Of a stretch of 53,595 nucleotides of DNA, positions 1 to 30,629 are shown in pieces. Both the position numbers and the translations under genes were made by a program. Position 1 is the first letter of the stretch. Each line of letters begins with the position of its first letter. Under the pieces are notes generated by a model, which saw nothing but the letters and a program-made list of their open reading frames with translations, did no database searches and was not told the origin of the DNA. Source of the stretch: a virus (taxonomy: Duplodnaviria; Caudoviricetes); the IMG/VR virus record IMGVR_UViG_3300040734_000009, positions 1 to 53,595 of that record. One strand, given 5' to 3'.

Positions 1-4
1 TGTC

Positions 5-55
5 TGAGCGGGAAACGAGATTCGAACTCGCGGCCCTCAGCTTGGGAAGCTGATG
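5..55 (-). other. 3' half of tRNA-Gly(CCC); probable att core (attR or attP)
   Basis: Reverse complement reads CATCAGC-TT-CCC-AA-GCTGA-GGGCC-GCGAG-TTCGAAT-CTCGT-TTCCCGCTCA, giving anticodon arm, T arm and 3' acceptor strand. The 5' half (D arm) is absent and replaced by AT-rich sequence. Confidence 0.85.
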
Positions 56-227
56 ATTCAATTACCCTATTAAGCTGTTAATATGATAATTGCAAGGTTT
101 TAAAAACATCATCCGCAAACATTTCTCAAAACAAGCCCTCATTTTCTCAAATATCCTATTGTAAATATGGCAGAAATTTACCATCTTTGTGACGTCATTC
201 AATCGCTTGTTTTGCCAAGCACTGTGT

Positions 228-258
228 AAAAAAAATCCCTGCCATCTGACAGGGATTT
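228..258 (-). terminator. Intrinsic terminator closing the late operon
   Basis: Stem AAATCCCTG/CAGGGATTT followed by a T-run on the minus strand, just after the last minus-strand gene. Confidence 0.75.
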
Positions 259-306
259 CTCATTATTAGTCCGTGCAATTTACACGTAATATCCATCCAG
301 GGCAAT

Positions 307-1119
307 TTAAGAAAATATCTCTCCGTTCCTCCTAAGTGGGGTTTTTCTTTGCGAAAGCGCCTGTTTGATCTTAACCAACTCAATCTCGTATTGCGTCGTC
401 TCGATCTGAGCATCATCCATGTACCGGTTGACAATGAACCACTCTTTTACAAAGTAGGTGATTAGGGCCTCCAGTGTTGATCCCCATGCCTGGTGAATCA
501 TATTCAGGTCCCAAGTGGTGTTCATGTCGAGATAGTACACTATGAAGTCATCTGTCTGTGTCATCACGGCATACTCAAGGCTATCCACATCGGTAGTGAA
601 TGCGCTGTCAAGGGTGATGGTGTCGGCGGTATTACTCACAATAGTCCTCTCCTGGTTCTGTTCCAAGCCGGCAGAGGTTATCACCAGCTTGTAGCCGGCA
701 AGCTCATTTACGACAAATGCCTGTTCAGAATCGGTCAGTACGGCGGTCGTTCCTCCGGAGGTAACGGATCCACTCTCCACCGGCTCCCCGAATTTCACAT
801 TGAACCGGTTGGCTCCGGCAATATTCTTGGCCCATGCTGACATCTTCATGAATACCTCATTGCATCCCCTTTTCATCAGGTCATCAAACATATCGCGCTC
901 GTCATCGGTGATGGCAAGGTGATCTATCCTGGATTCCCCCTGTTCATTCTTTGCAAACCGGGATCTCCATGCGGTCCTCTTCTTGGTGCCCTCGAAGAGA
1001 GTATCAAGGTTGAATAACATGATGAGCCGGTAGTTGTTGCCGGCACTTGCCTCTATGCTCGTAAGGTAGGTCGTTACGTTAACATAGGTCTTGTCCGAGG
1101 TATTGTATAGCAGTATCAT
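307..1119 (-). CDS. Putative virion structural protein (adaptor-like) with an inserted beta-rich domain
   Basis: 270 aa; helical ends flank a T/S/G-rich segment (GSVTSGGTTAVLTD...TITLDSAFTT) typical of phage structural proteins; 4-nt overlap with the upstream gene. Confidence 0.55.
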   Translation of the reverse strand: MILLYNTSDKTYVNVTTYLTSIEASAGNNYRLIMLFNLDTLFEGTKKRTAWRSRFAKNEQGESRIDHLAITDDERDMFDDLMKRGCNEVFMKMSAWAKNIAGANRFNVKFGEPVESGSVTSGGTTAVLTDSEQAFVVNELAGYKLVITSAGLEQNQERTIVSNTADTITLDSAFTTDVDSLEYAVMTQTDDFIVYYLDMNTTWDLNMIHQAWGSTLEALITYFVKEWFIVNRYMDDAQIETTQYEIELVKIKQALSQRKTPLRRNGEIFS

Positions 1120-1616
1120 ATTATGATGAGTTTGAAATGATCCGGGAGTGTCGCGCGAAGCATATCCATTGCCCGGGTTGATTCTGCAATATCCAGGGTG
1201 CCATCATCGTTAAGGTCCACAAACCGGAGTCCTGGCATGATGCATCCTTCGGTGTCCACCTTACGGGGATTGCTAACCTGATCTCTTGGAACGATCTTGA
1301 ATAACCTTCTGAATATAAGGATAAGCCGCAGGATATGTTTCAGTCCTCTTTCGCTGGCAAAATTACCGATGTGGAGGAGAATACCATCCCGCCCGGGAAC
1401 ATCTTTCACAAGCCAGCAATGGCCATACTTGGGGTGTTGTATCCGCTCGCAGTCATAAGTGCCGGCAGGAATACAGCTGACCTTCCTTTCATTGTTCAGC
1501 CATGGAAGCTCAAGGGATTTAATGTTGAGTGCAATCCGGTCCTGCTCAAAGACAATGAGGCTCCCAGGGGTCTGGGATGCCTCATATCGTCTTGCTATGA
1601 CTGCTGTGACGTTCAC
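1116..1616 (-). CDS. DUF5675-family putative endolysin (L,D-transpeptidase-like)
   Basis: Motifs LELPWLNN..SCIPAGTY, DVPGRDGILLHIGN and DTEGCI; adjacent to a holin-like gene. Confidence 0.8.
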   Translation of the reverse strand: MNVTAVIARRYEASQTPGSLIVFEQDRIALNIKSLELPWLNNERKVSCIPAGTYDCERIQHPKYGHCWLVKDVPGRDGILLHIGNFASERGLKHILRLILIFRRLFKIVPRDQVSNPRKVDTEGCIMPGLRFVDLNDDGTLDIAESTRAMDMLRATLPDHFKLIII

Positions 1617-1627
1617 GGCTTATTAAC

Positions 1628-2722
1628 TTAATTAGGCAGGGCAATCTTTATTCCCGGAGACAAATAGAATCTCTCTTTTGGCAAGAGGTTGCTGTTTGCA
1701 TTGTACCCTATCCCTACACTGAAGTTAATGCCCTTAAATATCTCCCATCGGTACCCAAGATCATAGACAGAGATGGCGGCCATAAAGGACCAATACCCAT
1801 AAATATCATTCCCGGGAATAGGTGGCAGAACATACCCTCCGATACCATAATCCTTAAATACTGCATCTCCTACAGCTGTACAATGATCGAAGACTAATCC
1901 ATAGCCGGGTCGGGCAAAGTTATCTGGTATAAACCTCCCTTCATCTGCCGAATAGTGATACTGAAATCCCTGAAAAGTCAAAGCTGTTCGCAAAAACAAT
2001 GCTCCATTATCATTGAAATAAAGAGTATCAATTCCGCGATTAGATTTGCGAACCTTCACTATGGATGCTTTCACCTTTACCATATCTGAAGTAAGCGGAG
2101 TTATGAGCCTGGCAACAAAGGACTGTTTCCGGGGCTCATATATATCTTTCTTTTCATTGAATAGCGACTCAACAAATGCTCTGGTCACATATCCTCCATG
2201 ATACTGATTGGAATCTGCGAGCGCTATTCCTTCAACGGTATTAGAAGCATCAAACGTTATTGGTTGTGCCTTAATTCCAATGACCATTATTCCAAGGAGG
2301 ATAATTGTCATTGTCCCTCTTTTCAGGGCCCTGGACGTGGCCGGCGAGATAAACCCTCGTACAGCATTCTTGTTATGCTGTGGCGCAAAGAACGTAGTAC
2401 CGAGGTAGGTAAATGAGGCTGCCGCTACGATCTTCCATACAACATTCCATACAACAACTCCCTCGATGAAATAGGTAGTGAATCCCTCGACAATACATGT
2501 CCCGATGGCGATGAGTAGTCCCGATGCCAGGTTGATCCACGAGAGAGCGCCTGCAGGAGAGTCAGAGTGAAAGAATTTAACGATGTTCTTGCCGAAGTAT
2601 ATGAGTATCGTACTCACTGCTGTTACTCCGAGCAGAACCCAGTTGATAGGCTGTACAGCGAACGCTGCCACAATTACTCCTATGAGCATTTGTGCAAGTC
2701 CTTTCCAAAACTGCTGATTCAT
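1628..2722 (-). CDS. Holin-like 4-TM domain fused through a signal-peptide-like segment to a beta-strand-rich domain
   Basis: aa 1-113 are two internally repeated hydrophobic hairpins; aa 131-152 RALKRGTMTIILLGIMVIGIKA are followed by Q; the C-terminus has alternating beta-strand patterns. Confidence 0.6.
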   Translation of the reverse strand: MNQQFWKGLAQMLIGVIVAAFAVQPINWVLLGVTAVSTILIYFGKNIVKFFHSDSPAGALSWINLASGLLIAIGTCIVEGFTTYFIEGVVVWNVVWKIVAAASFTYLGTTFFAPQHNKNAVRGFISPATSRALKRGTMTIILLGIMVIGIKAQPITFDASNTVEGIALADSNQYHGGYVTRAFVESLFNEKKDIYEPRKQSFVARLITPLTSDMVKVKASIVKVRKSNRGIDTLYFNDNGALFLRTALTFQGFQYHYSADEGRFIPDNFARPGYGLVFDHCTAVGDAVFKDYGIGGYVLPPIPGNDIYGYWSFMAAISVYDLGYRWEIFKGINFSVGIGYNANSNLLPKERFYLSPGIKIALPN

Positions 2723-2785
2723 GATTTTGTGATTTGGTTAAACATTAATGTTTTAGCGTAGTAAAGTTATCACTTTTGTTGTATA

Positions 2786-2804
2786 ATACTGCGTATTTGC
2801 CGTA
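2786..2804 (-). promoter_or_regulatory. Operator-like motif, copy 1 (TACGGCAAATACGCAGTAT)
   Basis: Matches TACRRC-N4-AYGCAGTA; intergenic, upstream of the holin-like gene. Confidence 0.7.
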
Positions 2805-2819
2805 TGATGTTCAAAAAAA

Positions 2820-3656
2820 TTAAGCCGCATCAACCTCAAAGGGAAACTCATACATACGCTTCTCGCTGCCGGTGAGTGATGGACTCTGTGGAAAGTCTTT
2901 TGACGGAAGATACTTTTCAACATCCTTCTGCCAGTTGATATTGAATACTCCCGGGCGCATGATCTGTGCAAAATAGAAGGTGAACGCACCGGTATATTCA
3001 TTATTGATGTAGGCATCGCTGGCGGTTTCCCTTTCTCCGCATGCCGCGAACACTATCCAATCAATCTCCTCGTTGATGATCTCCCGCTTGGATACATGGA
3101 AGTTCTCGGGAAGGGGTTCAGAAAGCAGGAACCTGGGCTGCCTGTAATGAGGATTGTTCATCACTCTCGGGATCGTGATCCCGGTGGAGAAACAGCAGTC
3201 AAGGATGAACGTAACCTTCAGGCCGGCCGGCTTCTTCTTCATGAGTTCATAAAGCTGATAATCCGCATAGGTCCCGTTATAGAAATAGAACGCCTCGGAG
3301 AACCCGTCTATCTCCCGGGGATTCCGCTTATAGGTACCATGACCGGAGTAATGGATGACCAGGTGCCCGATAGGCATGTTCTCAAATGCCTTGAGGATCT
3401 CTGCCTCGAATCTTTGCCATGTGCATTGACTGTCCTGGAAGAGCCGAAATACAAACTGCGACCAGAATTGTTTTATCCGGGCAACAATCTTCTTCTGATC
3501 GTTAAGGCATCCCCGGAGCGGTCTCTGGGTGTATTTATTGATGGCAAAGGATAGGCAGCAGAACAACCCATAGTTGAACGGTGCCTCCGGTGCCGGGGTG
3601 AATAGGTTCTTAAAGAAGCGAGCTATCTTCATAATGAGTGTGTTTTTTGTTGTCAT
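2820..3656 (-). CDS. Caspase-family (peptidase C14, metacaspase-like) protease
   Basis: LRGCLND, HYSGHG (catalytic His), ILDCCFS (catalytic Cys), FAAC..E.ASD, GAFT and Q.P.L motifs. True start may be Met9 (3632). Confidence 0.9.
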   Translation of the reverse strand: MTTKNTLIMKIARFFKNLFTPAPEAPFNYGLFCCLSFAINKYTQRPLRGCLNDQKKIVARIKQFWSQFVFRLFQDSQCTWQRFEAEILKAFENMPIGHLVIHYSGHGTYKRNPREIDGFSEAFYFYNGTYADYQLYELMKKKPAGLKVTFILDCCFSTGITIPRVMNNPHYRQPRFLLSEPLPENFHVSKREIINEEIDWIVFAACGERETASDAYINNEYTGAFTFYFAQIMRPGVFNINWQKDVEKYLPSKDFPQSPSLTGSEKRMYEFPFEVDAA

Positions 3657-3831
3657 ACTTTTCTTTTTGCGGGAGCGGAGTACGCAATCCCAGGTTACAA
3701 AAGATAATTCCGTATTGGTTCCTGGAGTAGTCTATGTAAACCTCAAACAGGGTGATCTTACCTATCCTGATCTTGATGGCGTACTTATCCCACCCCTTCT
3801 TCTTCGACTTCCAACTGTTGATTACTGCCAT
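3610..3831 (-). CDS. Small hypothetical protein
   Basis: 73-aa ORF, co-oriented and tightly packed in the operon. Confidence 0.55.
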   Translation of the reverse strand: MAVINSWKSKKKGWDKYAIKIRIGKITLFEVYIDYSRNQYGIIFCNLGLRTPLPQKEKYDNKKHTHYEDSSLL

Positions 3832-3833
3832 GG

Positions 3834-4160
3834 CTATGCGATGAGTGCAATTATTATTGCGGCTACAGCGGTAATGGCTATGGCCGCATTAAACACGGTG
3901 TTCCATGCAATGTTTTTCTTTGCCCCTTCCTCCTTTTGCAATCTCTCCCGTTCCTTAAACTGAGTGATAAACTCTGTGGAAACTTTCACATCTGCAGCCA
4001 TGGGAGTTACTATTGATAGAAGAGTGGCAATCTGACCCTTCATTCCTGGATCTTCACTGCCTGCACCATTAATGTTATCATCAATCTTATCAACCTTCTC
4101 TTTTAGGCTCCTAATCTCTGCCTCTTTGATGCAAGTATGTGGTGTCCTCGGAGGTGTCAT
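3834..4160 (-). CDS. Coiled-coil protein with C-terminal TM helix (holin or lysis accessory-like)
   Basis: 108 aa; hydrophobic C-terminus AAIAITAVAAIIIALIA; position at the start of the lysis region. Confidence 0.6.
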   Translation of the reverse strand: MTPPRTPHTCIKEAEIRSLKEKVDKIDDNINGAGSEDPGMKGQIATLLSIVTPMAADVKVSTEFITQFKERERLQKEEGAKKNIAWNTVFNAAIAITAVAAIIIALIA

Positions 4161-4172
4161 GGCGGTAAGAAT

Positions 4173-4451
4173 TTAAAATATTGCATTAATAATTGTTTCG
4201 CCGATGAGCCATGCAAAGCATGTTACCCATCCGGCTACCCATGTTGCAAAAAAGTCATAGAAGTCTGCCGTACCTTTCCTGAGTAGTTTATCCCATACAA
4301 TTTCTTTCCCCGCGCCGACAATCAAAACCAGACCGAATACTGCGGCCCTGTCCCAATTATACATATACTCATGAGGGATGAATGTTACCAGGGCCATACC
4401 CATCAAGGCGATGAGTATGCCAGCTATTGCATGAAGTCGTTTGTCTTTCAT
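4173..4451 (-). CDS. Small membrane protein (YfiM/DUF2279/VanZ-like), paralog A
   Basis: DKRLH..G, GAGKE..WD and D..D...TW..G motifs with about 3 hydrophobic segments. Confidence 0.65.
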   Translation of the reverse strand: MKDKRLHAIAGILIALMGMALVTFIPHEYMYNWDRAAVFGLVLIVGAGKEIVWDKLLRKGTADFYDFFATWVAGWVTCFAWLIGETIINAIF

Positions 4452-4452
4452 T

Positions 4453-6759
4453 TTACTGTTTCTTAATTGGTTTGCCAGATAATGTTTTCAACATGATTCC
4501 GGATGGTGATTTAAGAGCAGATGTGATTCCGGGTGATAATGGCAGTTCATGTTCATAAGCTCCAAGATCAGGACCATCACCTATAAAAGATATTCCAACG
4601 TCAACCCCTGTATCAATAAGATCACTACCAACCGCGAGATGAAGGAAACTGAGAACGGGTTTATTATTACCGGTACGACTACCAGATACGCCGGTACTGT
4701 CTATACTTGCAAAGTCAGTTGAGTTGACCACATAGCTTGTGTTATTATTACCATTTATCAAGAATGTATTATGACTTAGCACACTCTCGGCATTCCATGT
4801 CCCATTACCTAAAGTGTTGTCGTAGGATATGTTATTATTGGATTGATTGACGGCTGTCCCCATGTTAAACAAGAAATACCCGTATCCACCATTTCCATAA
4901 GAGGTATTATTCCTGATAAGGATTATTGTATAGGTGGCATTCTGATTGAATCCGGCGCCTCTATTACGGAATGATACATTATTAGTTACAATTCTTAGTG
5001 TGTCGCTGTAAGCTGATGCGCCACTATATAGCCGCCCGAGCTTAATGCCATTGCCGTCACCCCCTGTTGTAGTCCCGTCCTCTCTGTATCCATTGTGCCA
5101 TGTCCAGCAGCTATCAATAGATACCTTCTTCCCACTATCCCACAGGTCAATGCCGTCATCAGAGTTATTCCAGGATCGGTGCCCGCGTATGATTGTCTCG
5201 GTTCCTTCGCCCATATCTGTCACCTCTAATCCATCACCGTCACCGTAGGGATCACTGCCGTAAGGATCTATCGGGTCGTAATTATGGTGAGTATCGCAGT
5301 AAAGAATTTGAGGATCACCACACGCATAAACAAGTATCCCGTGTCCGTTATGGTCGCTCTCTACACGTTCAATGATACAGTTGTCGGAGTTATACAGGGT
5401 AAGCCCGGAGCATATAGACGACAGTGCCGTGTCCTGTTCAAAGCCGGTTATCCGCAGGTCCTTCAGGTAAATGTAATTTGCACCACTTACCTTCAATAAC
5501 GCTACCGGCCAGCTCACGGCACCGAACTCTCCCGCAGCACGGGTAAATACAGGGGATTCACCCGGATAGGCCCATACATTGATATAGTTACCAGCACTCC
5601 CGCTCTTGCCACTCATCACCTGGTCGTCATTATACTCATACGTACCGCCACGGCAATAGATAACATCGCCGGCATCCACCGATGCCCATGCGTGGTTTAT
5701 GGTAAACCAGGGCGAAGCCAATGTTCCTGCTCCTGCATCACTGCCCGTAGGGGAAATATAAAATGTATCTCCCTGATATATCCTTGCTCCTACCTGCCAT
5801 GTACTTCCCTGTAATGTTGTATCGGGATCACCGCTTCCCCATACGGCATCCACGGATAATCCGTAATCAAATGAACTTCCGAGATCTGTTCCATAGAATA
5901 AGGGTTCAGACGGAACAAAATCAACGGTATCAATGAAAGCAGGGTTTACCACCTGCGAATGTGTGTCATATCCAAGCGCCTGCCATTGGGCAAAAGTCAT
6001 AGACGTTCCACAGAAATTAAACAGCGGTGTTCCTGCCTCGCAATAGTAGACGTTAAAGTCGCACTCAAGACCTACGGTATCACTTAACTCATATACATAG
6101 ATGTTGTATATCTGGTTCTTCGTGTAGAAGATGTTGTTCATGATCTTTACCCCGGTGGATGCTGCCACAGGGCTGTCATTCTCATAAACATCCACCAGTC
6201 CCCGCCATGTCCCCGCCCCGGGAGCTGTATAAGACACATTAGACGAGTAGAACGTATTACCATATACCCTCACTCCGTTCATGCCTTTAATGGCTATTGC
6301 CGTTGCCTCCGGTGAACGAAAGATGTTATAAGCTACCGATCCGTTGGTATCGGTCATACCATCGGATTTCCTGACCACTCCCATCGGCACACGGTCAACA
6401 TAGTTGTAACGAATGACAGCATCAATGTTATACCCCGTAAAAATACCATGCGTGACAGTTGCATCGGTTCCGTCGCCTACCCACAAAAACCTATTGCCAG
6501 TTATCTTCTCCCCGTCAAGATTATTGTTATAAGCTCCAACGGTTTCATCCCCGGCCTGTAGCAGATAACCTACGGTGTTCTGTGACTGGATGATGCTGTT
6601 TTTAAAGGTAAAGTCAATGGCTGAAGTTCTGGTGACATTGTACCCATACCATGTAGCTTCGGTGTTGGTTATTGTCTCATTCTCAACGACTACCTGTGCA
6701 GTAATTAGCCATGGCAGAAATAACAGGGCAAGGCAAACTATGTTTCTCAATACAGCCAT
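4453..6759 (-). CDS. Tandem right-handed beta-helix protein with Sec signal; C-terminal module resembles PL9 polysaccharide lyase
   Basis: Signal peptide ending LITA/Q; Asn-ladder repeats; YISPTGSD..GT...PW, DGDG, NSDDGID, GDGNGIKLG and PDLGAYE motifs. Confidence 0.8.
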   Translation of the reverse strand: MAVLRNIVCLALLFLPWLITAQVVVENETITNTEATWYGYNVTRTSAIDFTFKNSIIQSQNTVGYLLQAGDETVGAYNNNLDGEKITGNRFLWVGDGTDATVTHGIFTGYNIDAVIRYNYVDRVPMGVVRKSDGMTDTNGSVAYNIFRSPEATAIAIKGMNGVRVYGNTFYSSNVSYTAPGAGTWRGLVDVYENDSPVAASTGVKIMNNIFYTKNQIYNIYVYELSDTVGLECDFNVYYCEAGTPLFNFCGTSMTFAQWQALGYDTHSQVVNPAFIDTVDFVPSEPLFYGTDLGSSFDYGLSVDAVWGSGDPDTTLQGSTWQVGARIYQGDTFYISPTGSDAGAGTLASPWFTINHAWASVDAGDVIYCRGGTYEYNDDQVMSGKSGSAGNYINVWAYPGESPVFTRAAGEFGAVSWPVALLKVSGANYIYLKDLRITGFEQDTALSSICSGLTLYNSDNCIIERVESDHNGHGILVYACGDPQILYCDTHHNYDPIDPYGSDPYGDGDGLEVTDMGEGTETIIRGHRSWNNSDDGIDLWDSGKKVSIDSCWTWHNGYREDGTTTGGDGNGIKLGRLYSGASAYSDTLRIVTNNVSFRNRGAGFNQNATYTIILIRNNTSYGNGGYGYFLFNMGTAVNQSNNNISYDNTLGNGTWNAESVLSHNTFLINGNNNTSYVVNSTDFASIDSTGVSGSRTGNNKPVLSFLHLAVGSDLIDTGVDVGISFIGDGPDLGAYEHELPLSPGITSALKSPSGIMLKTLSGKPIKKQ

Positions 6760-7820
6760 ATCACAGGTATTTCATTACTTGCTGTTACGTCCACCCCTGT
6801 CTCTGTTGCCGGAGGGGTTATCTGCGCGGTCACAATCCCAGCTATTTTATTTGTTCCGGTCAGTGCTGAAAATGCCGCATGTAAGAAATCATTATTGAAA
6901 TAAATCTTCGGAGCGGTTGTTTGCGCGGATGAATTATAAACCAGAAATACGTAATAAAGCCCGGGATTTAGTGTATGCGGTCCTGTTGCAAATGCCCTTG
7001 TTGCAGAGGTGTTGGCCGTTGTCTTCCATATGTCACCATCATTAGCTGTGCTGTCAATGTACGTGTAGGTAGTCCCGGATACGCTATATATGGCAAATCC
7101 GTTATAGTTGTCTGCCGTGTATGCCCCTTGTGTATCCTGAATAAATCCTACACCAGTCACTTCGAGGGTATCAAAAAAATAGAATTGGGTGTATATTGCC
7201 TGTGCATCATAAAGCGAGTGCGATACTCTGGGGTACAAGCCGAAAGAGGGACCGGCCTTGATGGACATTCCTGCAGCCTGGAGGGCTTTAATATAGTTAT
7301 CCTCAATCCCGTTATTCCACTGAGTCAGGACAACCCCTACTTCCCCGTCTGCAATGTATTGGTCAATCGAATCAATTACATCTTCGGGCGTTGCATATCC
7401 GGAATTGGCGATGCTATCCACAAGCGCCTTTCTGGTCACATAGTTGCCGGCAGAAGTCAGGGTGCTATCCACTGCCCTTATACGGCCGTTGATCTGTGTC
7501 TGTACCGCAGAGGTTACTCCCGCGATCCTATTAAGCTCGGCCGTGGTCACAGTTGCTCCCCGGAGGATGGCCAACTCAGTCGGCTCAAGGTAATAGGTCT
7601 GCAGTCGGTTCAACTCAGCGATCCCCTTATCTGCCTTGTCAAAGGCCGTTCTCGCCTTGTCAGCCGAAGGGTCATTGTTGTATGCCCCTATGTTTATACG
7701 TTCCAGGGCAATATTGGGAGCCCGCGATGTTGTTTGCATCTTCCGTAAAGACCCGCAGCTGGTTACTGCTAACGCTATGGTAACTATTATAAGCAGTGAT
7801 AGTTTTTTCATATTGTGCAC
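6747..7820 (-). CDS. Lipoprotein-signal protein carrying phage tail-fibre motifs
   Basis: MKKLSLLIIVTIALAVTS-C lipobox; INIGAYNNDPSADKARTAFDK and TELAILRGATVTTAELNRIAGVTSAVQTQIN motifs. Likely start is Met4 (7811). Confidence 0.65.
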   Translation of the reverse strand: MHNMKKLSLLIIVTIALAVTSCGSLRKMQTTSRAPNIALERINIGAYNNDPSADKARTAFDKADKGIAELNRLQTYYLEPTELAILRGATVTTAELNRIAGVTSAVQTQINGRIRAVDSTLTSAGNYVTRKALVDSIANSGYATPEDVIDSIDQYIADGEVGVVLTQWNNGIEDNYIKALQAAGMSIKAGPSFGLYPRVSHSLYDAQAIYTQFYFFDTLEVTGVGFIQDTQGAYTADNYNGFAIYSVSGTTYTYIDSTANDGDIWKTTANTSATRAFATGPHTLNPGLYYVFLVYNSSAQTTAPKIYFNNDFLHAAFSALTGTNKIAGIVTAQITPPATETGVDVTASNEIPVIWLY

Positions 7821-7842
7821 TTTTAAGAAATGTTGAATACTT

Positions 7843-8109
7843 TCATCGCTTCAGCCAATCTGTTAGTCCGATAAATATTGCCGTGATTATACCGCCAGCC
7901 CACGTAAAGGTGATATCGGCCACTTCCGGCTGTCCCCAATTAAACCACAGGTCGCCCGCTTCTTTTGCGCCGCCGACCAACAAGGGTAACAGGCATGATA
8001 CGGCTATCACCCAATCCTGCCTTTTCCCGTTTATCGCTCGCCCGAAAACGAGCATTATCACCGCTGCTATTGCGGCTCCTGAATACAAGTGAAGTAGTAA
8101 GTCTGTCAT
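7843..8109 (-). CDS. Small membrane protein (YfiM/DUF2279/VanZ-like), paralog B
   Basis: LLH..SG, GGAKE..D and E.AD...TW.GG; same motif pattern as 4173-4451. Confidence 0.65.
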   Translation of the reverse strand: MTDLLLHLYSGAAIAAVIMLVFGRAINGKRQDWVIAVSCLLPLLVGGAKEAGDLWFNWGQPEVADITFTWAGGIITAIFIGLTDWLKR

Positions 8110-9029
8110 AATTCTACCATATTAGGAAATCCCATTTTTATTCTCTCGTTTACAAGGCCGCACTGCTTCTTCAAGTAGTGAGCCGTAGCTGAGAGATTCG
8201 TGTGTCTGAGCTGATCCATAAGCTCTCTCATGCTTATTCCGCTCATGTGCAGGAGTGACGCTCCGGTATGCTTGAATGAGTAGAACTTGTAAGCCTTCGG
8301 TAGATTAAGTTCATCCCTGAAGGCATTAAACCGACACCGGAGCATATTCACCGAGCAGGGTTTTTTATTGAACCTGCGCTTCGTTCCGAACACAAACAGA
8401 TTCTTATCTGCCTTATCAATCCCGTACTCATAACAGAGATCAATAAGTTGCTGCGGCATAGTCACGGACTGCTTGCGCTTGTTCTTGGCTATCTCCTGCC
8501 GGATGGTTATCATGCCATTAATCATATCAATGTCGCCTATCCGCAGAAGCCTTAACTCCTTGCCCGGCCGGATGAAGCAATAGAACTGAATATTACAGGC
8601 AAGGAATAATTGCGGGTCTTTCTCCTTAATGTGCGTCATCAGGGTCTTCATGTCATCTCTCTGGATCATGCTTGCCCCCTGATCTTTCTTCTTTCGTGGG
8701 AATGATATCAGGCTAAAAGGCAGTTCCGTTGCCTCACCCCACTTGACGCAATATTTCCATAATGCCCGCAGGGAAACAAAATACTTCTCGCAAGTTGTAC
8801 GGTCAAGTCCCTTTCCACGCCCTATATGGAAGAAGAAATCAGCCATCATCTGAGGGGTGATCTTTCTCAGAGGGTAGTGTGAATAGCCCTTCTCTTTAAG
8901 CCAGTACGAAAATACTCTCGTATGGTTGTTATATGGATACATGGATCGGGTCTGTACTTCCCCCTCCTTTTCAAGTAAAAATCCGGGGACAATTTCGTCG
9001 AAGGTCTTATATCTCCTGAAGATATCCAC
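8106..9029 (-). CDS. Tyrosine recombinase (short, no evident arm-binding domain)
   Basis: 307 aa; IRPGKELR (R), AKN (K), YSFKHTG, LRH and TAHY (catalytic Tyr); helical core-binding region at the N-terminus; GTG start. Confidence 0.9.
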   Translation of the reverse strand: MDIFRRYKTFDEIVPGFLLEKEGEVQTRSMYPYNNHTRVFSYWLKEKGYSHYPLRKITPQMMADFFFHIGRGKGLDRTTCEKYFVSLRALWKYCVKWGEATELPFSLISFPRKKKDQGASMIQRDDMKTLMTHIKEKDPQLFLACNIQFYCFIRPGKELRLLRIGDIDMINGMITIRQEIAKNKRKQSVTMPQQLIDLCYEYGIDKADKNLFVFGTKRRFNKKPCSVNMLRCRFNAFRDELNLPKAYKFYSFKHTGASLLHMSGISMRELMDQLRHTNLSATAHYLKKQCGLVNERIKMGFPNMVEL

Positions 9030-9096
9030 TTTTTTATTTTACTCACTATTAATTATTTACTATATACTTTCGTTAAAAATGTTCGTAGGTCACGGT

Positions 9097-10680
9097 TTAA
9101 ACATAAGCCGCAACATTATCAATCAAGTCTGCAACATACCCGCAGATGACGTTGATCTCGTTTTCATAAACAGTTCCCGCCGTAAAGACTTCATAACTCG
9201 CTGCTTTTACATAAGCCTTCCCCCTATTTGATCCCATATTATACAGGAATGATTGCTCGGATGAGCCACGCCCATTTGCTGCCGGATCAGGCACATCAAA
9301 CCGAAGGATGATATTTTCATAATCCCCCCCCTCTGTATTATTGTAAACAAACACATGGCTCCTGTTAGCCCCGTCTGTAATATTTACAGTATCCAGATTA
9401 TCCGGCAGTGTAAGTTCTTGTTTATAATCGGACACAAAGCGGTTAAATACTGTATAATACCACGGAACCTGGACGCAGTATAAGGTGCTTATTAAAGTAT
9501 TCACAAGAACGTCATAACGATACTTCAGATTAACACCGGAGGTCGTTATGGTTATACTCGACGTAACGGTCATAAGATGCTCTTCGATGTTAGCAGCGTT
9601 AATCGCAAATGCAACATTCTCCATATGGTATTCGTCACACTCCTCAAGTACCGCATCTGACACAAGATTACCCGTGACCTCTACGTCATCTATCCAGTTC
9701 TGCATATCATAACCAGTATCATATTCAAGATATGCTGCAGCGGCGTGTTGTGGTATCCATCCCGGAGTATCTGCCGTACCCGCCTTGCTTATTGTTGTAG
9801 CCATCGTAAAATGCGGGAGGCTTTCGGGAATAAGGTGAGCAATAAGTTCTGTATAATTAATCGACGTTCCCCCCGTTACTTTAAACGATCTTTCTTTTAC
9901 CACATCGCCATCGCGAAGGGTTATTGTGTACGCACTTGACGATACATTCTTGGTATTTTTAGGTAATATTCCTAATTTATAAGTTCCCGCTGTTAAGCCT
10001 GAAAACAAAGTATATGTATCAAGTGTGGCAGTGCTTTCCGCATAAAAGTCAACATCAATGTATGTGTATTGTGCTTGGTGATATATCTGCCATGCTGATC
10101 CGGTATAATAAATAAGGTCATAAACTTCAAGTGCACTCATAGAGGCATCTATGTTTGAATAATTGCCCGCTTGCTGAACAATATAATATCGCCCTGCCGC
10201 CTTGTCTGCGTTTACGGCATTAGGCCCGTTAATGCCAACAACCAAATACCCCCGAAGTGTGCCATCAAACAGGATAAACCTACCTATGCCCTTACCACTA
10301 CCCTTGTATGCCGATAGTACCAGATCGGTGCCGTTGAACGTCATGGTATCAACAGTGGCTGAATCCCCGACAGAGTATGTGAGATTATTGGTCATGTTAT
10401 TCAATGACTTATCTCCGTTGTACATCCCGATCATTTGGCGATAGGTCAGTTCGCCTATTTCATACCAATCATCATTACCTTTTAATATTTTGTAATCAGC
10501 ACCATAATCCATGCCTTGCCATTTATGGAAAATATGAATTGACCTCTCCGCCCCACTGATATTATCCCACCAGTAATACTGTTTTTCTATTACTGGTTTA
10601 AATTGGTTAGTCCAGTACGAACTCCAACTTTTTCCACCGATACGGTGCGGGCTTATTGCTATGGGTGAGAGAATAGGCAT
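9097..10680 (-). CDS. Putative receptor-binding or tail-fibre-associated protein
   Basis: 527 aa, beta-rich, at the end of the tail gene series; short N-terminal leader ending GGKSWSSYW; body looks AT-richer than its neighbours. Confidence 0.55.
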   Translation of the reverse strand: MPILSPIAISPHRIGGKSWSSYWTNQFKPVIEKQYYWWDNISGAERSIHIFHKWQGMDYGADYKILKGNDDWYEIGELTYRQMIGMYNGDKSLNNMTNNLTYSVGDSATVDTMTFNGTDLVLSAYKGSGKGIGRFILFDGTLRGYLVVGINGPNAVNADKAAGRYYIVQQAGNYSNIDASMSALEVYDLIYYTGSAWQIYHQAQYTYIDVDFYAESTATLDTYTLFSGLTAGTYKLGILPKNTKNVSSSAYTITLRDGDVVKERSFKVTGGTSINYTELIAHLIPESLPHFTMATTISKAGTADTPGWIPQHAAAAYLEYDTGYDMQNWIDDVEVTGNLVSDAVLEECDEYHMENVAFAINAANIEEHLMTVTSSITITTSGVNLKYRYDVLVNTLISTLYCVQVPWYYTVFNRFVSDYKQELTLPDNLDTVNITDGANRSHVFVYNNTEGGDYENIILRFDVPDPAANGRGSSEQSFLYNMGSNRGKAYVKAASYEVFTAGTVYENEINVICGYVADLIDNVAAYV

Positions 10681-16130: not shown

Positions 16131-17504
16131 TTACGCTTTCGGACGTATAATTGCGTGTGTGTCAGGATAACGGGTAACAATACCGGAGGTCTCTTCGATC
16201 ACAACGGCATCGGCGTTCCTTTGGCCGGATTTTTTAAGGTCCAGCGTAGTAGTGGAAAGAGGCTTCCATGTGTGTTTCTCGATGAAGGCGAGGTCGAGAA
16301 CAATACCGTTCTCATCCCATCCTGCCTGATCAAGTCCCGGGTGATGGAAGAACCTCAGAAGGCCGAAGTTGGTCTCGATCTCCTTGAAGGTAAGACCATA
16401 TTTCACCATCGTCTGCTTACCCTGGATCTGCTTGATCACAGTGTCAACCTTCATCAGTGCGGCCATAAGGCTATTACCCCCGAAGAGATATCTTACCTCG
16501 GATCCGCTGTTCCCGGAGAATAATGATTTGGTTGCATCAACAAACCATGCGTTGTCAATAGTCCTGTCGGTCCCGCCAAGTCCATACTCAATAGCCTTAG
16601 AAATGAACCTGGTTGTTCCGCCGGTTGCGTACCTCTCCTTGCTATGCACAAGGTCAGTAAACTGAGCCCTTACTCCAAACAAATAAGCCATCTCCATGGT
16701 ATTCTTCATATCAAGGATGTTCTGGGCTTCATAATCAGTAAAGCTCCAGTCAACCTCTTTTGCATGATCTCTCTGGAAAATTGATTCTTCCACCTGTGCC
16801 ATGAAACGCTGCACAAAGTTGTAGCTCTTAGCAGGCAGGATAGCATAAGGTGAGGTCTGAGCAGCAAGCTCATCCTTACAAGGTCCTACGCGAACTATGC
16901 GGGTGCCTACAGGGATTGTGGCAGGTATGATCATCATGTCTGCAGTCGTTCCCGAACCGGCAGTACCGTTAAGAGGCTGCAGTTTGATGGTACCTGCGGA
17001 TACATCCTTGGATATGACAAAGCATACAAGGTCCTTGCTGTCAACACCGGTAATACCTTTTACCATGACGTTCTCGTCAGCGGTAAATGTGCTAATGTTA
17101 TTTACAGCCAGGTCAATAGAGGTATGACCATCACCCGATTTGGTATAAGCAGTCTTGACGGTATCGTACAGAGGACGGCTGTCAACGGCATAATATTCAG
17201 TCTTCCATGAATGAATAGGAGTAGCCTTACGGATCTGCCTCATGATTGTATCAAGAGGAGTGGCCGCGGGCCTCATCTCAGTCACCAACTTGGATACATA
17301 TTCCATATCCAGGTCGGCTGCATTAGCATTCACCTGAGTGGTAGTGACGGTACCCGTACCATCGGTGCCTCCCGTTACAGGAGCACCAACAGCCACCGTT
17401 ATACCGGCAGCACCAGCCATAAGCGAAGTGCAAAGTATTGCCACAAGCATGAATGCAAAGGCAAGTACCTTGGTTCCGATATTAAAAATGTTTGTGTTTC
17501 TCAT
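16131..17504 (-). CDS. Major capsid protein (SU10/DUF5309-like) with hydrophobic N-terminal leader
   Basis: 457 aa; TPLDTI, NFVQRF, E.AYLFG, TGG...FI and ETNFG.L...HH motifs; follows the scaffold gene. Confidence 0.85.
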   Translation of the reverse strand: MRNTNIFNIGTKVLAFAFMLVAILCTSLMAGAAGITVAVGAPVTGGTDGTGTVTTTQVNANAADLDMEYVSKLVTEMRPAATPLDTIMRQIRKATPIHSWKTEYYAVDSRPLYDTVKTAYTKSGDGHTSIDLAVNNISTFTADENVMVKGITGVDSKDLVCFVISKDVSAGTIKLQPLNGTAGSGTTADMMIIPATIPVGTRIVRVGPCKDELAAQTSPYAILPAKSYNFVQRFMAQVEESIFQRDHAKEVDWSFTDYEAQNILDMKNTMEMAYLFGVRAQFTDLVHSKERYATGGTTRFISKAIEYGLGGTDRTIDNAWFVDATKSLFSGNSGSEVRYLFGGNSLMAALMKVDTVIKQIQGKQTMVKYGLTFKEIETNFGLLRFFHHPGLDQAGWDENGIVLDLAFIEKHTWKPLSTTTLDLKKSGQRNADAVVIEETSGIVTRYPDTHAIIRPKA

Positions 17505-25220: not shown

Positions 25221-26066
25221 ATGGCGGAACCAATGTTTAATGTAGGAGACAAGGTGTACATTATCTCGGATGATGTGCCGAGAATCTACACAATCACTTC
25301 GCGTAATCTCGACCAGTACTTGCAATGGGTATATAATATCTATTCCAAGAAGGGAGACTACACATCCCAAGGTTTTAATGTTCCACAATTAGATCTTACA
25401 CATGCAATTATTCATAAACAAAACAATACTATGGTAACAACAGATTTTGCTTATGCCTTAAAGGCACTCAAGGGGGGCCGCAAGGTCTATCGTGAAGGAT
25501 GGAACGGAAAAGGAATGTGGCTCGCTTATGTAAAAGAGAACGAAGCCCTATCGCATGTTGGTGATTCATGGGATCATGCTCCATGGATCGGTATGAAAAC
25601 CGCGGATGGCAAGTTCGTCCCCTGGCTGGCATCACAGACTGACATGCTCGCTACCGATTGGTGCATCATGGGAGAAGAGAAAGAGGAGAAAAAGGATGAT
25701 AGGATACCGGTGCCGGAGAATATCAAGTTCTTTACTAATGGTGACTTATTCTTTTTGATATCTCCAAACGGAAAGATTGGAGTAAGATCTATAAAGGGGC
25801 TACCACGACTACTCCCGGCATATGAATGGCCGCAAGAGAATTATACCGGTAAAGCCTTTCTCGTTCCATGCAAGCGAAGCGATATGAAGCCGGGGGATAT
25901 AGGATTCTATTCTTACGGGTACGACCTCAATCTTGAAATTGAAAAGGTTGGTCACTACTGTGTCATCTTAGATGAAACAGATCATGCACGATGGGACAGA
26001 GAAATGGACATGCTATTATGCCATAATTCAATGAAAAACACCTGGTACAAGGTAATCTTCAAATGA
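25221..26066 (+). CDS. Multi-domain protein with a central DUF2829 (Tad2-like) domain
   Basis: F..AL.ALK.G.KV.R.GWNGKGMW and MKTADGKFVPWLASQTDMLA.DW motifs. Confidence 0.85.
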   Translation: MAEPMFNVGDKVYIISDDVPRIYTITSRNLDQYLQWVYNIYSKKGDYTSQGFNVPQLDLTHAIIHKQNNTMVTTDFAYALKALKGGRKVYREGWNGKGMWLAYVKENEALSHVGDSWDHAPWIGMKTADGKFVPWLASQTDMLATDWCIMGEEKEEKKDDRIPVPENIKFFTNGDLFFLISPNGKIGVRSIKGLPRLLPAYEWPQENYTGKAFLVPCKRSDMKPGDIGFYSYGYDLNLEIEKVGHYCVILDETDHARWDREMDMLLCHNSMKNTWYKVIFK

Positions 26067-28625: not shown

Positions 28626-30629
28626 TTATGCAGCTGGCATCTGTCTGCCACCCTTCATTCCTATAGCCTGTTGTAGCATAGCCATTGCCCTCGGGTCAGC
28701 CTGTCCGACCTGTGCGGCGATCTCGGGAGGTAGTTGCCCTGGCATTCCACCAGCATTGAGTGATTCCATACGTGTACGGACCGATGCTAATAGCTTCTCA
28801 GCAAATGGCATGGATGTATGTTCGAGAAACATTTCAAGGTCAATAAGATTACTTTTAAGAAGCTCGAAGAGCATGTCATCAACCATCTGGCGATACACAG
28901 GGGTATCCTTTCCTTGTGCGATAGCCATATCCCAATCAAGGTCCCTTGCAAGTTCCGGGTCATAAATCTTCTCTTCTTTAGTGGCAGCCAGACCATTGAT
29001 AGCCAGGTACCTCTTATCCTTATAGAACTGAGTGATAACCTTCAGGGCCTTACGGTTCCTGCGGAGTATCATGCTTTGATAGCTCTGCAGCTGGTCCACC
29101 ACATTCAAGGTTGCGTTCTGTGCCTCCTGTGCGTATAGTGCTGCCGGCGTTCCTGACGGTGCCCTTTGACCCTGGATTGATTCATTGATACCTGAATTCT
29201 TCTCAAGCAGCCCCATCTGCAGGTTAAGCATCTCCATAATACCTGCCGGTACTGATGATGCGGCAATCTGCTTCGGGAGCTGTCCGTCCGCACGAGGTTT
29301 ATAGAAAATAACTCCATTGAATCGGCGGTACTCATCAGCGAACTGTTCCGGAGTCATACCTTCAGGCACACAATCTTCTGGCACCATAAGCACTCCCTTG
29401 GCTGACGCTCCGATAATAAAGTCAAGCATTATGACCATACGGTTGATATACCTCTGTTGATCAAGCATATCTTCGACAAAACCCCACACTTCACCGTCAA
29501 GCAAGGGGAACAATACCAATGAGTACGGATGCTCTTCATGCTTGTAGGGAGATTCGGCCTCGAACAGGCAATGGCCCAATGGAGTAAGAAACTTCACATA
29601 CCAGAACTGTTCATGCTTGGCTTCGGCTTCCAGGAGAGGAACCTCGGTCTTGTCTATCCCATTTGCCAACGCCATTTCAAGCCTGGCATTATTCTCCTTT
29701 GCGATCTCCGACATTGGTGTGTCAGTGATAGTATAAGAACCATCCATGGGATCATGCACATAGGTCCTCCATGCACTCCGGAGCTGCCATATCTCAAACA
29801 GGCGAGCTTTGTTGCTGTCCCTGGGAATATAGAAATCGAGGCTATCCACCCTCCGGGCATCGAATCCATAATCAGAGAAGAAGTCCTTGGAAGATATGTT
29901 TGCATATACTTCCCGGATTCTTTGCTCCTGTGCTGTGTTCTTGGCGAAGGCGCTGACTATGTTATCTACCGTGGTATCTATGATCTCCCCTATTAATCTC
30001 AGGTCTTTCAGCCTGACATCTGATACATCGGTATTAAGGAAGAGCCTGTTTATATTGGTGTTCTCGATAGTAAGGTCCTCAAGGTTGCGCTCTTTCCAAT
30101 AGTCATAACCTATTTTTTGACAGCCCACACCAGACATTAAGTAAACCTCCAGCTGTCTTGCATCAAGTTCCTTTACCTCGTTAAGCTCAAGAGCACACTG
30201 CAAGGTATTCGTAAGCATTTCACCCAGGGAGGCTTCCTCTCGACCACGCGCAATAACCACGGCCTTAGTCGGGTTACTACGAAACTGCCCTATAAGGTTC
30301 GCAACCAGAGGACGTATGCGGTTCTGTTTCAATGGCACCTTGCCTTGGTTCATAAGGTGTGTTTCCTCAGTGATCCATCGGCCCGTATCCGGATCCTGCA
30401 TCTCATCTGACCACTGATCTCCACGGTAGTATTTGCGGTTGCGCCTTGCCCTGGTGCGAAGATCTCTCATACTCTCCCACCACCTGCGGGCCTCTTCGAG
30501 AAGCTGCATGTTCTCCCGGGTATCGCTGTCAAGGGATGCAACCGGCAGAGGAACAACCTTCTGCTTTCGCATGCCTATCTTGCTGTTGGGACGCTTCTTT
30601 AATTCTTCTACTGATATGCTCTTTTTCAT
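28626..30629 (-). CDS. Portal protein (P22-like)
   Basis: 667 aa; YYRGDQW, N.IRP.V....G, G.VEDM.D.QR.IN and SGIN....G motifs. Confidence 0.88.
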   Translation of the reverse strand: MKKSISVEELKKRPNSKIGMRKQKVVPLPVASLDSDTRENMQLLEEARRWWESMRDLRTRARRNRKYYRGDQWSDEMQDPDTGRWITEETHLMNQGKVPLKQNRIRPLVANLIGQFRSNPTKAVVIARGREEASLGEMLTNTLQCALELNEVKELDARQLEVYLMSGVGCQKIGYDYWKERNLEDLTIENTNINRLFLNTDVSDVRLKDLRLIGEIIDTTVDNIVSAFAKNTAQEQRIREVYANISSKDFFSDYGFDARRVDSLDFYIPRDSNKARLFEIWQLRSAWRTYVHDPMDGSYTITDTPMSEIAKENNARLEMALANGIDKTEVPLLEAEAKHEQFWYVKFLTPLGHCLFEAESPYKHEEHPYSLVLFPLLDGEVWGFVEDMLDQQRYINRMVIMLDFIIGASAKGVLMVPEDCVPEGMTPEQFADEYRRFNGVIFYKPRADGQLPKQIAASSVPAGIMEMLNLQMGLLEKNSGINESIQGQRAPSGTPAALYAQEAQNATLNVVDQLQSYQSMILRRNRKALKVITQFYKDKRYLAINGLAATKEEKIYDPELARDLDWDMAIAQGKDTPVYRQMVDDMLFELLKSNLIDLEMFLEHTSMPFAEKLLASVRTRMESLNAGGMPGQLPPEIAAQVGQADPRAMAMLQQAIGMKGGRQMPAA

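Follow-up and report, generated by a model that had tools for sequence, protein, structure and literature searches.

The 53,595-nucleotide tailed-phage contig IMGVR_UViG_3300040734_000009 (Duplodnaviria; Caudoviricetes), analysed at its full length and called the window below, carries a gene for a caspase-family protease (C14) inside its lysis block, beside genes for a holin-like membrane protein and a putative endolysin. This placement recurs in other contigs far beyond chance: over 50 contigs of environmental phages have a caspase-family protease tied to a holin-like gene. The arrangement is real, recurrent and apparently undescribed, and apparently represents a variant of the phage lysis cassette. 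To our knowledge, the phage lysis scheme consists of a holin and an endolysin, joined by spanins or a disruptin in double-membraned hosts, and has no phage-encoded protease in it. The cassette holds two further uncharacterised parts, a predicted secreted β-barrel protein and a tail-anchored coiled-coil protein.

Results

Layout of the lysis block

A preliminary description of the window, made from the sequence alone, had proposed a co-oriented holin/endolysin cassette of five genes enclosing the protease. All five were confirmed in that order on the minus strand: a 108-residue protein with a coiled coil and a C-terminal membrane anchor (p108, 3834-4160), a conserved basic 73-residue protein (p73, 3610-3831), the 278-residue C14 metacaspase-like cysteine protease (2820-3656), a 364-residue fusion of a holin-like domain, a signal peptide and a β-rich domain (p364, 1628-2722), and the 166-residue putative endolysin DUF5675 (1116-1616). 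The small membrane protein p92 (92 residues, family c13, with a hydrophobic segment), encoded at 4173-4451 on the same strand, belongs to the same block and is its first gene. The genes are closely packed, with 12 nucleotides between p92 and p108, 2 between p108 and p73, an overlap of 20-47 nucleotides between p73 and C14 according to the C14 start chosen, 97 nucleotides between C14 and p364, and 11 between p364 and DUF5675.

DUF5675 matches Pfam PF18925 (E 2.7e-19) and is the only wall hydrolase recognised in the 53.6-kb genome. A PHROGs scan of 63 window open reading frames (ORFs), with Pfam applied to 45 of these as well, recognised no further lysis gene. Since DUF5675 models as a YkuD-fold wall hydrolase and no other lysis gene was recognised, the block is the genome's lysis locus and not an add-on to a second cassette, which bears out its earlier classification as a lysis cassette of the holin/endolysin type. 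As the block has a recognisable wall hydrolase of its own, the protease does not substitute for an endolysin.

Conserved position of the protease gene

IMG/VR was scanned with a C14 alignment, ORFs were called, and the neighbouring proteins were clustered and used to build local hidden Markov models. The scan gave 43 loci (counted as contigs, not as independent events) at 23-79% identity. The gene immediately after C14 encodes a small (≤140 residues) membrane protein in 27 of 42 viral loci, L039 being left out for want of a callable C14 ORF, compared with a background of 72 among 537 plus-strand genes (13%) of the 43 loci, a figure that includes the genes following C14. The position of C14 is therefore non-random.

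Several neighbour families recur at these loci. Family c1, present at 24 of the 43, sits directly downstream of C14; the secreted family c2 is present at 15, DUF5675 at 7 and the lipoprotein-like family c4 at 9, and c6, an upstream coiled-coil protein with a C-terminal anchor and thus the architectural counterpart of p108, at 11. Three loci (L032, L034 and L035) have the order C14, a coiled-coil tail-anchored protein of family c29, and a protein with a membrane segment and a signal-peptide-like segment. The wall hydrolase found beside C14 varies in family: L004 has an Amidase_3 lysin (E 6.4e-24), L009 a phrog_465 endolysin (E 4.9e-19) whose cluster-mate occurs in L003, and L010 an M15-like lysin (below threshold), with DUF5675 elsewhere. 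The phage backbones differ as well: L005-L015 have Phage_portal_3, MuF and a lambda-type tail-tube-domain protein, in contrast to the P22-type portal and SU10 capsid protein of the window. The adjacency of C14 and a membrane protein persists at 23-37% C14 identity, across head modules and across three lysin families, and the protease is thus a fixed member of the cassette in distantly related phages.

Two scans with other cassette members support this picture. When c1 alone was the query, 29 loci were recovered, 13 of them on contigs new relative to the C14 query, and C14 lay directly upstream of c1 at 28 of 28 assessable loci, including 12 of 12 new assessable ones (L192, which starts at base 3 of its contig, was left out). 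A metagenome scan with the window DUF5675 yielded 36 loci, of which 14 were close relatives at 63-81% identity, and the order p108, p73, C14, p364-like protein, DUF5675, p270 was kept in all 12 that could be assessed (the upstream DNA of L146 and L148 was too short). Because the linkage with c1 is complete while most DUF5675 loci are without C14, we conclude that C14 travels with the membrane components (c1, c2, c4 and c6) and not with the lysin family.

Two further observations concern these loci. In L004, L005, L007, L008 and L010, the gene just before the block of c4, c6 or lysin and C14 encodes a sigma factor of the ECF type (Sigma70_r2 and r4; E 1e-12 to 1e-14), which suggests phage-encoded control of late or lysis transcription. 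L149 and L151 belong to one 144.5-kb metagenome contig that contains the block twice (48330-60845 and 119899-132414), with identical match patterns.

The C14 protease

The protease matches Pfam PF00656 with E 6.1e-13 (49.4 bits against a cut-off of 21.4). Its relatives start at the Met of MKI..., which makes base 3629 the probable true start in the window. A profile of thirteen C14 homologs at 87-27% identity, drawn from a collection of 5.8 billion proteins (alignment A1), matched solved metacaspases in the PDB, namely AtMC4 (6w8s, E 1.3e-23), Yca1 (4f6o) and TbMCA2 (4afr), together spanning E 1e-23 to 1e-16, and the bacterial protein GSU0716 (3bij). The motifs LRGCxND, HYSGHG, DxC and SAD and a p10-like C-terminal part all align to these structures. 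The preliminary description had reported intact HG and DC catalytic motifs, and the family agrees: the dyad is formed by His106 in HYSGHG and Cys155 in DCC, and of 35 distinct phage homologs all have Cys155 and 31 have His106, with gaps in the other four. Cys50, Asn52 and Asp53 of the CxND motif are likewise found in all 35, and the residue at position 214 is always acidic (Asp in 27, Glu in 8).

C14 has neither a hydrophobic segment nor a signal peptide, and is read as a predicted active, metacaspase-type enzyme that would be cytoplasmic because it has no export signal. The acidic residues of GCxND and SAD are presumably those that line the S1 pocket in solved metacaspases, and by analogy with these enzymes they imply a preference for Arg or Lys.

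A tblastn search with C14 against 50,697 cultured-phage records gave one match, to an unannotated 485-kb uncultured phage (26% identity). Species-representative genomes contained distant relatives only (24-36% identity), found in cyanobacteria, in Streptomyces and in a range of metagenome-assembled genomes. A prediction of the complex of C14 with p73 returned a score of 0.00 and no answer, which speaks neither for nor against binding. One 259-residue C14 homolog (P0012) carries its HYSGHGT His motif C-terminally, after the Cys region, either by circular permutation or as an assembly artefact.

The p364 fusion and families c1 and c2

p364 comprises three parts. Residues 1-137 (2312-2722, minus strand) form a multi-pass holin-like membrane domain; hydrophobic segments of p364 lie at residues 5-23, 26-44, 60-78 and 132-150. 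This domain is 43% identical to a free-standing 129-residue protein encoded between C14 and DUF5675 in L028, matches phrog_10328 below threshold (E 0.006), and ends in a basic linker with RALKR (residues 131-135). Residues 138-153 (2264-2311), MTIILLGIMVIGIKAQ, resemble a signal peptide and match in position the N-terminal signal peptide of free-standing homologs; the segment was recognised in the sequence itself, and MAFFT left the window copy out of register owing to a window-specific insert. Residues 154-364 (1628-2263) would form a periplasmic linker, holding this insert, and the β-rich domain.

The β-rich domain (residues ~240-361, bases 1640-2005) is related to family c2 (hhalign probability 98.2%, E 5e-14), whose members are free-standing proteins of ~150 residues that begin with MK[KR], a hydrophobic stretch and AQ, followed by a β-rich body. 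The holin-like and c2 parts of p364 are thus encoded as separate genes in other phages. Among database homologs, P0016 (180 residues) is a free secreted form, and P0017 and P0018 (233 and 313 residues) are fusions with the same SRALKR junction.

An AlphaFold2 model of the p364 C-domain (227-residue query) had a mean predicted local distance difference test (pLDDT) score of 73, rising to ~90 over six long strands (residues 103-224). Foldseek returned no match at E≤0.001 for this domain. VIA-align against 48,161 chains placed designed β-barrels first (Z 8.7 and 6.0), followed among natural proteins by the N-terminal barrel of OprF (5.9), NspA (5.2) and OmpA (5.0-5.1), as well as OmpW and OprH, although Z 5-6 is a range in which possibly only a common arrangement is shared. 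A C-terminal aromatic residue is the insertion signal of outer-membrane barrels. Six of 11 complete c2 members end in F and five in F plus one to three residues (the twelfth, from L002, is cut by the contig end and was not counted), and the window domain ends in ...IALPN and its closest homologs in ...LPN. A small outer-membrane β-barrel is therefore a supported lead for the modelled p364 C-domain and c2.

Family c1 consists of proteins of ~77 residues (range 72-88) with two membrane segments, a conserved N-terminal SRNFYDKxVPSRNLVTTI and a C-terminal LMFKAKD. Searched with a c1 profile, 1.84 billion representatives yielded 108 proteins, almost every one of them 55-97 residues long; three others, P0042, P0051 and P0052, are tandem duplications of 140-159 residues with two c1 units each. 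P0047 (227 residues) is an independent fusion of c1 (E 4.7e-10) with c2 (probability 99.9%, E 3.5e-35). Judged from these sequences, holin-like and β-barrel-like parts have been fused at least twice, in p364 and in P0047. Relatedness between the p364 N-domain and c1 themselves was not supported (hhalign probability 3.4%).

Both the p364 N-domain and c1 fit the holin layout, being small, having one or more membrane segments and adjoining a DUF5675, Amidase_3 or M15-like lysin. Their matches to described holin families do not reach the threshold (for c1 Holin_SPP1, E 0.004, with 17.7 bits where 27 are required; also phrog_962, E 0.008, and phrog_10328, E 0.006), and NCBIfam gave no match for the holin-like proteins.

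DUF5675 as a putative YkuD-fold endolysin

His82, Gly124 and Cys125 of DUF5675 are invariant in 57 sequences and form the motif HxGN...GC. The AlphaFold2 model (pLDDT 87.6) retrieved YkuD-fold proteins in all of the top six Foldseek rows (Pgp2, Ldtfm, Csd6, YkuD and Bd1075; probability 0.75-0.98, E 0.05-0.2). Among the top 1000 Foldseek chains, VIA-align superposed 42 YkuD-fold entries with Z 8.3-11.3 and a root-mean-square deviation (rmsd) of 2.1-2.9 Å over 98-113 residues; the best was Pgp2 (Z 11.3, rmsd 2.7 Å, 113 residues) and the first row outside the fold had Z 2.8. A sequence search against the PDB gave chance-level matches only. DUF5675 thus models as a YkuD-fold, MEROPS C82-like L,D-peptidase and putative endolysin, and a preprint (10.64898/2026.04.11.717860), in the portion available, groups a DUF5675 lysin with the C82 peptidases. 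No signal peptide is present.

The window copy has an amphipathic, basic insert of 25-30 residues (~90-118) between His82 and Cys125, modelled as a low-confidence helix and then a disordered stretch. L001 and L028 share it with the window, L027 and L029 have a shorter version, and L008, L014 and L024 lack it.

Small cassette proteins and the question of spanins

p108 has an N-terminal coiled coil and a single membrane anchor at residues 89-107, an XhlA-like architecture. It matches phrog_689 ('holin', lysis) with E 0.0074, the same PHROG being found for the analogous c6 protein of L007 (E 1.9e-4), and the XhlA PF10779 cluster is an ESM Atlas lead at rank 21 (score 0.92); a search against the Pfam XhlA family PF10779 gave no match at E≤0.1. 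Homologs at 50-52% identity occupy the same position in L001 and L139-L151, and relatedness of p108 to c6 or c29 was not supported (hhalign probability ≤15%).

p73 is a conserved gene, judged by an alignment of seven sequences (A7) with 60-81% identity to the window copy and 35 invariant columns. It is clade-specific, occurring among L001-L060 only in the window and L001 and also in L139-L151, and it matched no family in Pfam, PHROG, PADLOC or NCBIfam. p92 clusters with proteins of 100-127 residues upstream of the coiled-coil gene (c6) and C14 in L024, L025 and L028; it has no Pfam match and hits phrog_35767, of unknown function, with E 8e-4. It is also a weak paralog (30% identity over 77 residues, pairwise E 2e-4) of p88 (7843-8109, minus strand), which precedes the tail-fibre genes; genes of the p88 type also lie upstream of the fibre gene in L001, L147 and L149-L151.

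The preliminary description had found no recognisable spanins. This stands for the Rz/Rz1 form: no cassette protein has the Rz layout of an N-terminal membrane segment and a periplasmic coiled coil, p108 being anchored C-terminally, and no Rz1-type lipoprotein was noticed among minus-strand ORFs of at least 40 residues at 1-8000, where no systematic scan for lipoboxes or embedded ORFs was made. It needs amending in that the β-barrel-like C-domain of p364 is a candidate outer-membrane component.

The phage genome around the block

The assembly is one single contig of 53,595 bases without terminal repeats. Its portal is of the P22 type (28626-30629) and its major capsid protein of the SU10 type (16131-17504), and it also encodes the large terminase. 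The window phage is a temperate tailed phage, temperate because an integrase (8106-9029, minus strand) and an anti-repressor are encoded. The style of its signal peptides points to a Bacteroidota-like, Gram-negative-type host. A scan for promoters and terminators in 1-9200 gave counts no higher than in shuffled sequence, but the scan does not extend to the promoter type of the probable host.

The lysis block ends a long minus-strand series of late genes. Upstream of it, one nucleotide from p92, lies a β-helix tail fibre or depolymerase gene (4453-6759, minus strand; Pel9A-like β helix in Pfam, E 4.5e-23). Downstream, overlapping DUF5675 by 4 nucleotides, lies the gene for the soluble 270-residue protein p270 (307-1119, minus strand), which is conserved in close relatives at 61-82% identity, always downstream of DUF5675 in L001 and L138-L151. 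p270 has no match in Pfam, PHROG, PADLOC or NCBIfam; the Atlas gives a weak lead, to a cluster with SU10_adaptor PF24175 in 41% of its members (score 0.94, 131 shared features), and the protein is probably structural rather than lytic.

The integrase gene stands in the middle of the late-gene run, with structural genes on one side and those for fibre and lysis on the other; its counterpart in L001 is found past the lysis block and adjoins a repressor. A 357-residue fibre-like protein (6747-7820, minus strand) starts with a lipoprotein-type signal (…ALAVTSC), and its N-terminal part is common to proteins of 514-1007 residues, the 1007-residue ones (L021, L022) having Laminin_G_3. Between the portal gene and the upstream genes, a single 4009-residue ORF (30634-42663, minus strand) contains InPase (E 4e-58), LPD5, LPD38, MuF_C and LPD1 and also matches phrog_10089 (DarB-like antirestriction); this giant polyvalent protein is probably packaged in the virion. 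The window further encodes, on the plus strand at 25221-26066, a 281-residue protein whose domain resembles Tad2 (Thoeris anti-defence 2; E 5.3e-23) and, on the minus strand at 43835-44659, a GIY-YIG/NUMOD3 homing endonuclease. In L007 (3868-5967), a 699-residue MuF-like protein is interrupted by an intein with a DUF559/Vsr-type endonuclease.

Discussion

Role of the protease

The reading towards which we lean, while granting it somewhat less than even confidence, is that C14 is an integral, cytoplasmic component of the lysis cassette and controls the membrane step. C14 would cut after Arg or Lys in a part of some cassette membrane protein that faces the cytoplasm, the candidate segments being the N- or C-terminal tail of the holin-like protein and the coiled coil of the tail-anchored XhlA-like protein. 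The cut would license or time hole formation, the endolysin would then gain access to the wall, and the β-barrel domain would handle the outer membrane instead of spanins. A bolder form, in which the metacaspase is the lysis trigger itself, its cut in a tail converting an inert membrane protein into a hole-former, and in which the holin-like/β-barrel pair replaces spanins, is possible but doubtful.

Both neighbours of C14 had been noted in the preliminary description for exposed basic segments that the protease might cut. RALKR in p364 lies in a presumed cytoplasmic loop just before the internal signal peptide and would be reachable by a cytoplasmic protease. It appears to be the basic n-region of that signal peptide, because the free secreted forms begin with MKR or MKK, and host signal peptidase could release the p364 C-domain without any phage protease. 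As a general target RALKR is not supported, and the idea that C14 exists to split the p364 fusion at this point was rejected, because relatives with split genes still carry C14. The R/K-rich endolysin insert fares no better: it is lineage-specific and absent from three of eight C14-linked DUF5675 proteins, and activation of DUF5675 by its removal was rejected because the three loci that lack it (L008, L014 and L024) have C14 nonetheless. The role that is conserved for C14 is explained by neither segment; in the window phage itself, either one might still be cut.

A number of observations weigh against assigning C14 to the membrane step. The label 'holin' rests on architecture, position and sub-threshold matches, including those to phrog_689 (E 0.007 and 1.9e-4). 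Cleavage by C14 is putative, and the sequence names no substrate. The partner families (c1, the p364 N-type, and c29 with the membrane/signal-peptide type) are unrelated (hhalign probabilities ≤4%), so that a single conserved cleavage motif is unlikely, and 3 of 13 c1 sequences lack the conserved basic residue that precedes their first membrane segment. No fusion of C14 with c1 occurred among the 108 proteins of the c1 profile search, and no fused C14 was found among longer proteins (472-2000 residues) at E≤0.001, which is weak evidence. The locus counts contain near-duplicates (L005-7; L011-13 with L015; L020-22; L149-151). Lysis-like neighbours are missing from roughly 10 of the 43 C14 loci, those most distant from the window, and in L033 C14 follows a gp23-type capsid gene. 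Finally, the protease is not needed for the lysin as such. C14 is absent at 77 of the 80 best viral DUF5675 loci (80 of 205 relatives were examined), the three with C14 being the most window-like, and at 22 of 22 distant metagenome DUF5675 loci, many of them short. The preliminary description had allowed that the protease might occupy random positions, which is not borne out.

Several of these points would suit a late accessory protease, co-transcribed with the lysis genes, that cuts host cytoplasmic targets (defence, stress, cell-death or bulk proteins) while lysis proceeds independently; in a variant, firing of the holin would let in ions that activate C14. We consider such a protease unlikely on balance but worth serious attention. 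The enzyme would be cytoplasmic, with no signal peptide or membrane segment, the varying partner membrane families fit a target outside the cassette, DUF5675 cassettes are usually without C14, the distant C14 loci have no lysis genes nearby, and a 2026 preprint, as far as its available part goes, lists viral metacaspase-1 as an auxiliary gene. However, the invariable linkage with c1 and the adjacency kept at low identity across backbones are tighter than is usual for a free accessory gene. Related homing endonucleases that inserted between C14 and c1 (L024:6751-7668; L025:4416-5333), as well as after DUF5675 in L028, left the protease in place and the cassette intact. The neighbours, moreover, match no defence family.

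A protease directed at the envelope is improbable. Here C14 would exit through the holin holes and cut periplasmic or outer-membrane proteins, such as tethers between the wall and the outer membrane, which would accord with the missing Rz/Rz1-type pair, with the shared lack of export signals in C14 and the endolysin, and with the outer-membrane-directed parts of the cassettes, c2 and the lipoprotein-like c4. But protein cutting alone opens no lipid bilayer, the β-barrel-like domain of c2 is a more direct outer-membrane candidate, and metacaspases are cytoplasmic enzymes with a free catalytic cysteine.

Still less probable is a prophage module for cell death or exclusion, in which a caspase-type protease and a membrane effector would act in abortive infection in the manner of gasdermin systems. 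The phage is temperate, the generic PADLOC caspase model matches C14 (E 7.5e-8, covering part of the protein), and the block of L001 adjoins the integrase and a repressor. Yet the neighbours are without a match among the PADLOC families, and the membrane partner, a helical protein with a secreted β-barrel-like part, is not gasdermin-like. The block, moreover, runs in the same direction as the tail and lysin genes, lies close against them, and contains the only recognised wall hydrolase.

Maturation of the virion, the alternative raised in the preliminary description because no prohead protease was recognised in the window, is very unlikely: although the C14-c1 pair of L005-L015 lies just upstream of the portal and MuF genes and the C14 of L033 after a capsid gene, the window C14 stands outside the head module, ~12 kb from the capsid gene and beyond the tail-fibre genes, C14 is not a head-protease family and accompanies membrane and lysin genes across different portal and capsid types, P22-type heads require no protease, and a 333-residue gene directly upstream of the capsid gene occupies the usual position of a scaffold, a role that is inferred.

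Implications

If the protease does control hole formation, the cassette would embody a new mechanism of lysis timing, a proteolytic lysis clock of a kind not known from any phage. It would also be a viral use of the caspase fold for cell killing, of interest for the origin of caspase-driven cell death, and would supply new parts for engineered lysis switches. A β-barrel fused to or paired with a holin-like domain, if confirmed, would be a new route through the outer membrane in place of spanins. It is a candidate explanation for the opening of this membrane by phages of Bacteroidota-like hosts, among which spanins are seldom encountered. The finding also supports DUF5675 as a YkuD-fold endolysin family.

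Literature searches, including full text, found no paper on a metacaspase or caspase-like protease in a phage lysis cassette, nor on an orthocaspase together with a phage. In its available portion, a 2012 survey (PMC3501461) describes phage-related metacaspase operons in Clostridium botulinum and four fusions of C14 with Amidase_2, and the accessible part of a 2020 review (PMC7475262) raises cyanophage-induced proteolysis only as speculation.

Comparison with known systems

The window C14 shares with metacaspases and orthocaspases (C14B) the caspase-type domain, the His of HYSGHG, the Cys of DxC, the acidic residues of GCxND and SAD and the p10-like region. It differs in being minimal (~270 residues, with no prodomain or accessory domain), phage-encoded and fixed beside holin-like and lysin genes. 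The DUF5675 model superposes on YkuD-fold enzymes (Pgp2 6xj7, Csd6 4xzz, LdtMt2, Ldtfm 1zat, Tlde1a and DpaA) and has their HxGN...GC motif, but DUF5675 is a short, phage-borne single domain with no signal peptide, and the window copy has the basic insert.

Johnson et al. reportedly described, in 2022, a bacterial gasdermin with an adjacent caspase-like protease that acts in anti-phage cell death. The likeness is one of logic only, a caspase-family gene beside one that encodes a membrane-permeabilising protein, with the death of the cell as the result. In our case the partner is predicted to be a helical multi-pass protein (two-segment elsewhere) and not a gasdermin, the neighbours have no PADLOC match, and the genes lie within the phage's own late operon, together with an endolysin.

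Spanins are known as the Rz/Rz1 pair and as unimolecular spanins such as gp11 of phage T1. If its signal peptide stays uncleaved, p364 would resemble the latter as one chain reaching both membranes. Unlike them, it has no lipoprotein anchor or periplasmic coiled coil, its end is β-barrel-like, and its halves are separate in most relatives.

The closest parallel in gene order is with the PBSX/SPP1-type cassettes of Bacillus, in which XhlA (a coiled coil with a C-terminal anchor) is followed by the holin XhlB and the amidase XlyA. Both arrangements run from a tail-anchored coiled-coil protein through a small holin-like protein to a wall hydrolase, and weak sequence links connect them. The window phage, with no significant PF10779 match, probably infects a Gram-negative-type host, and its cassette is set apart by a protease gene between the XhlA-like and holin-like genes and by an extra, predicted secreted β-barrel protein.

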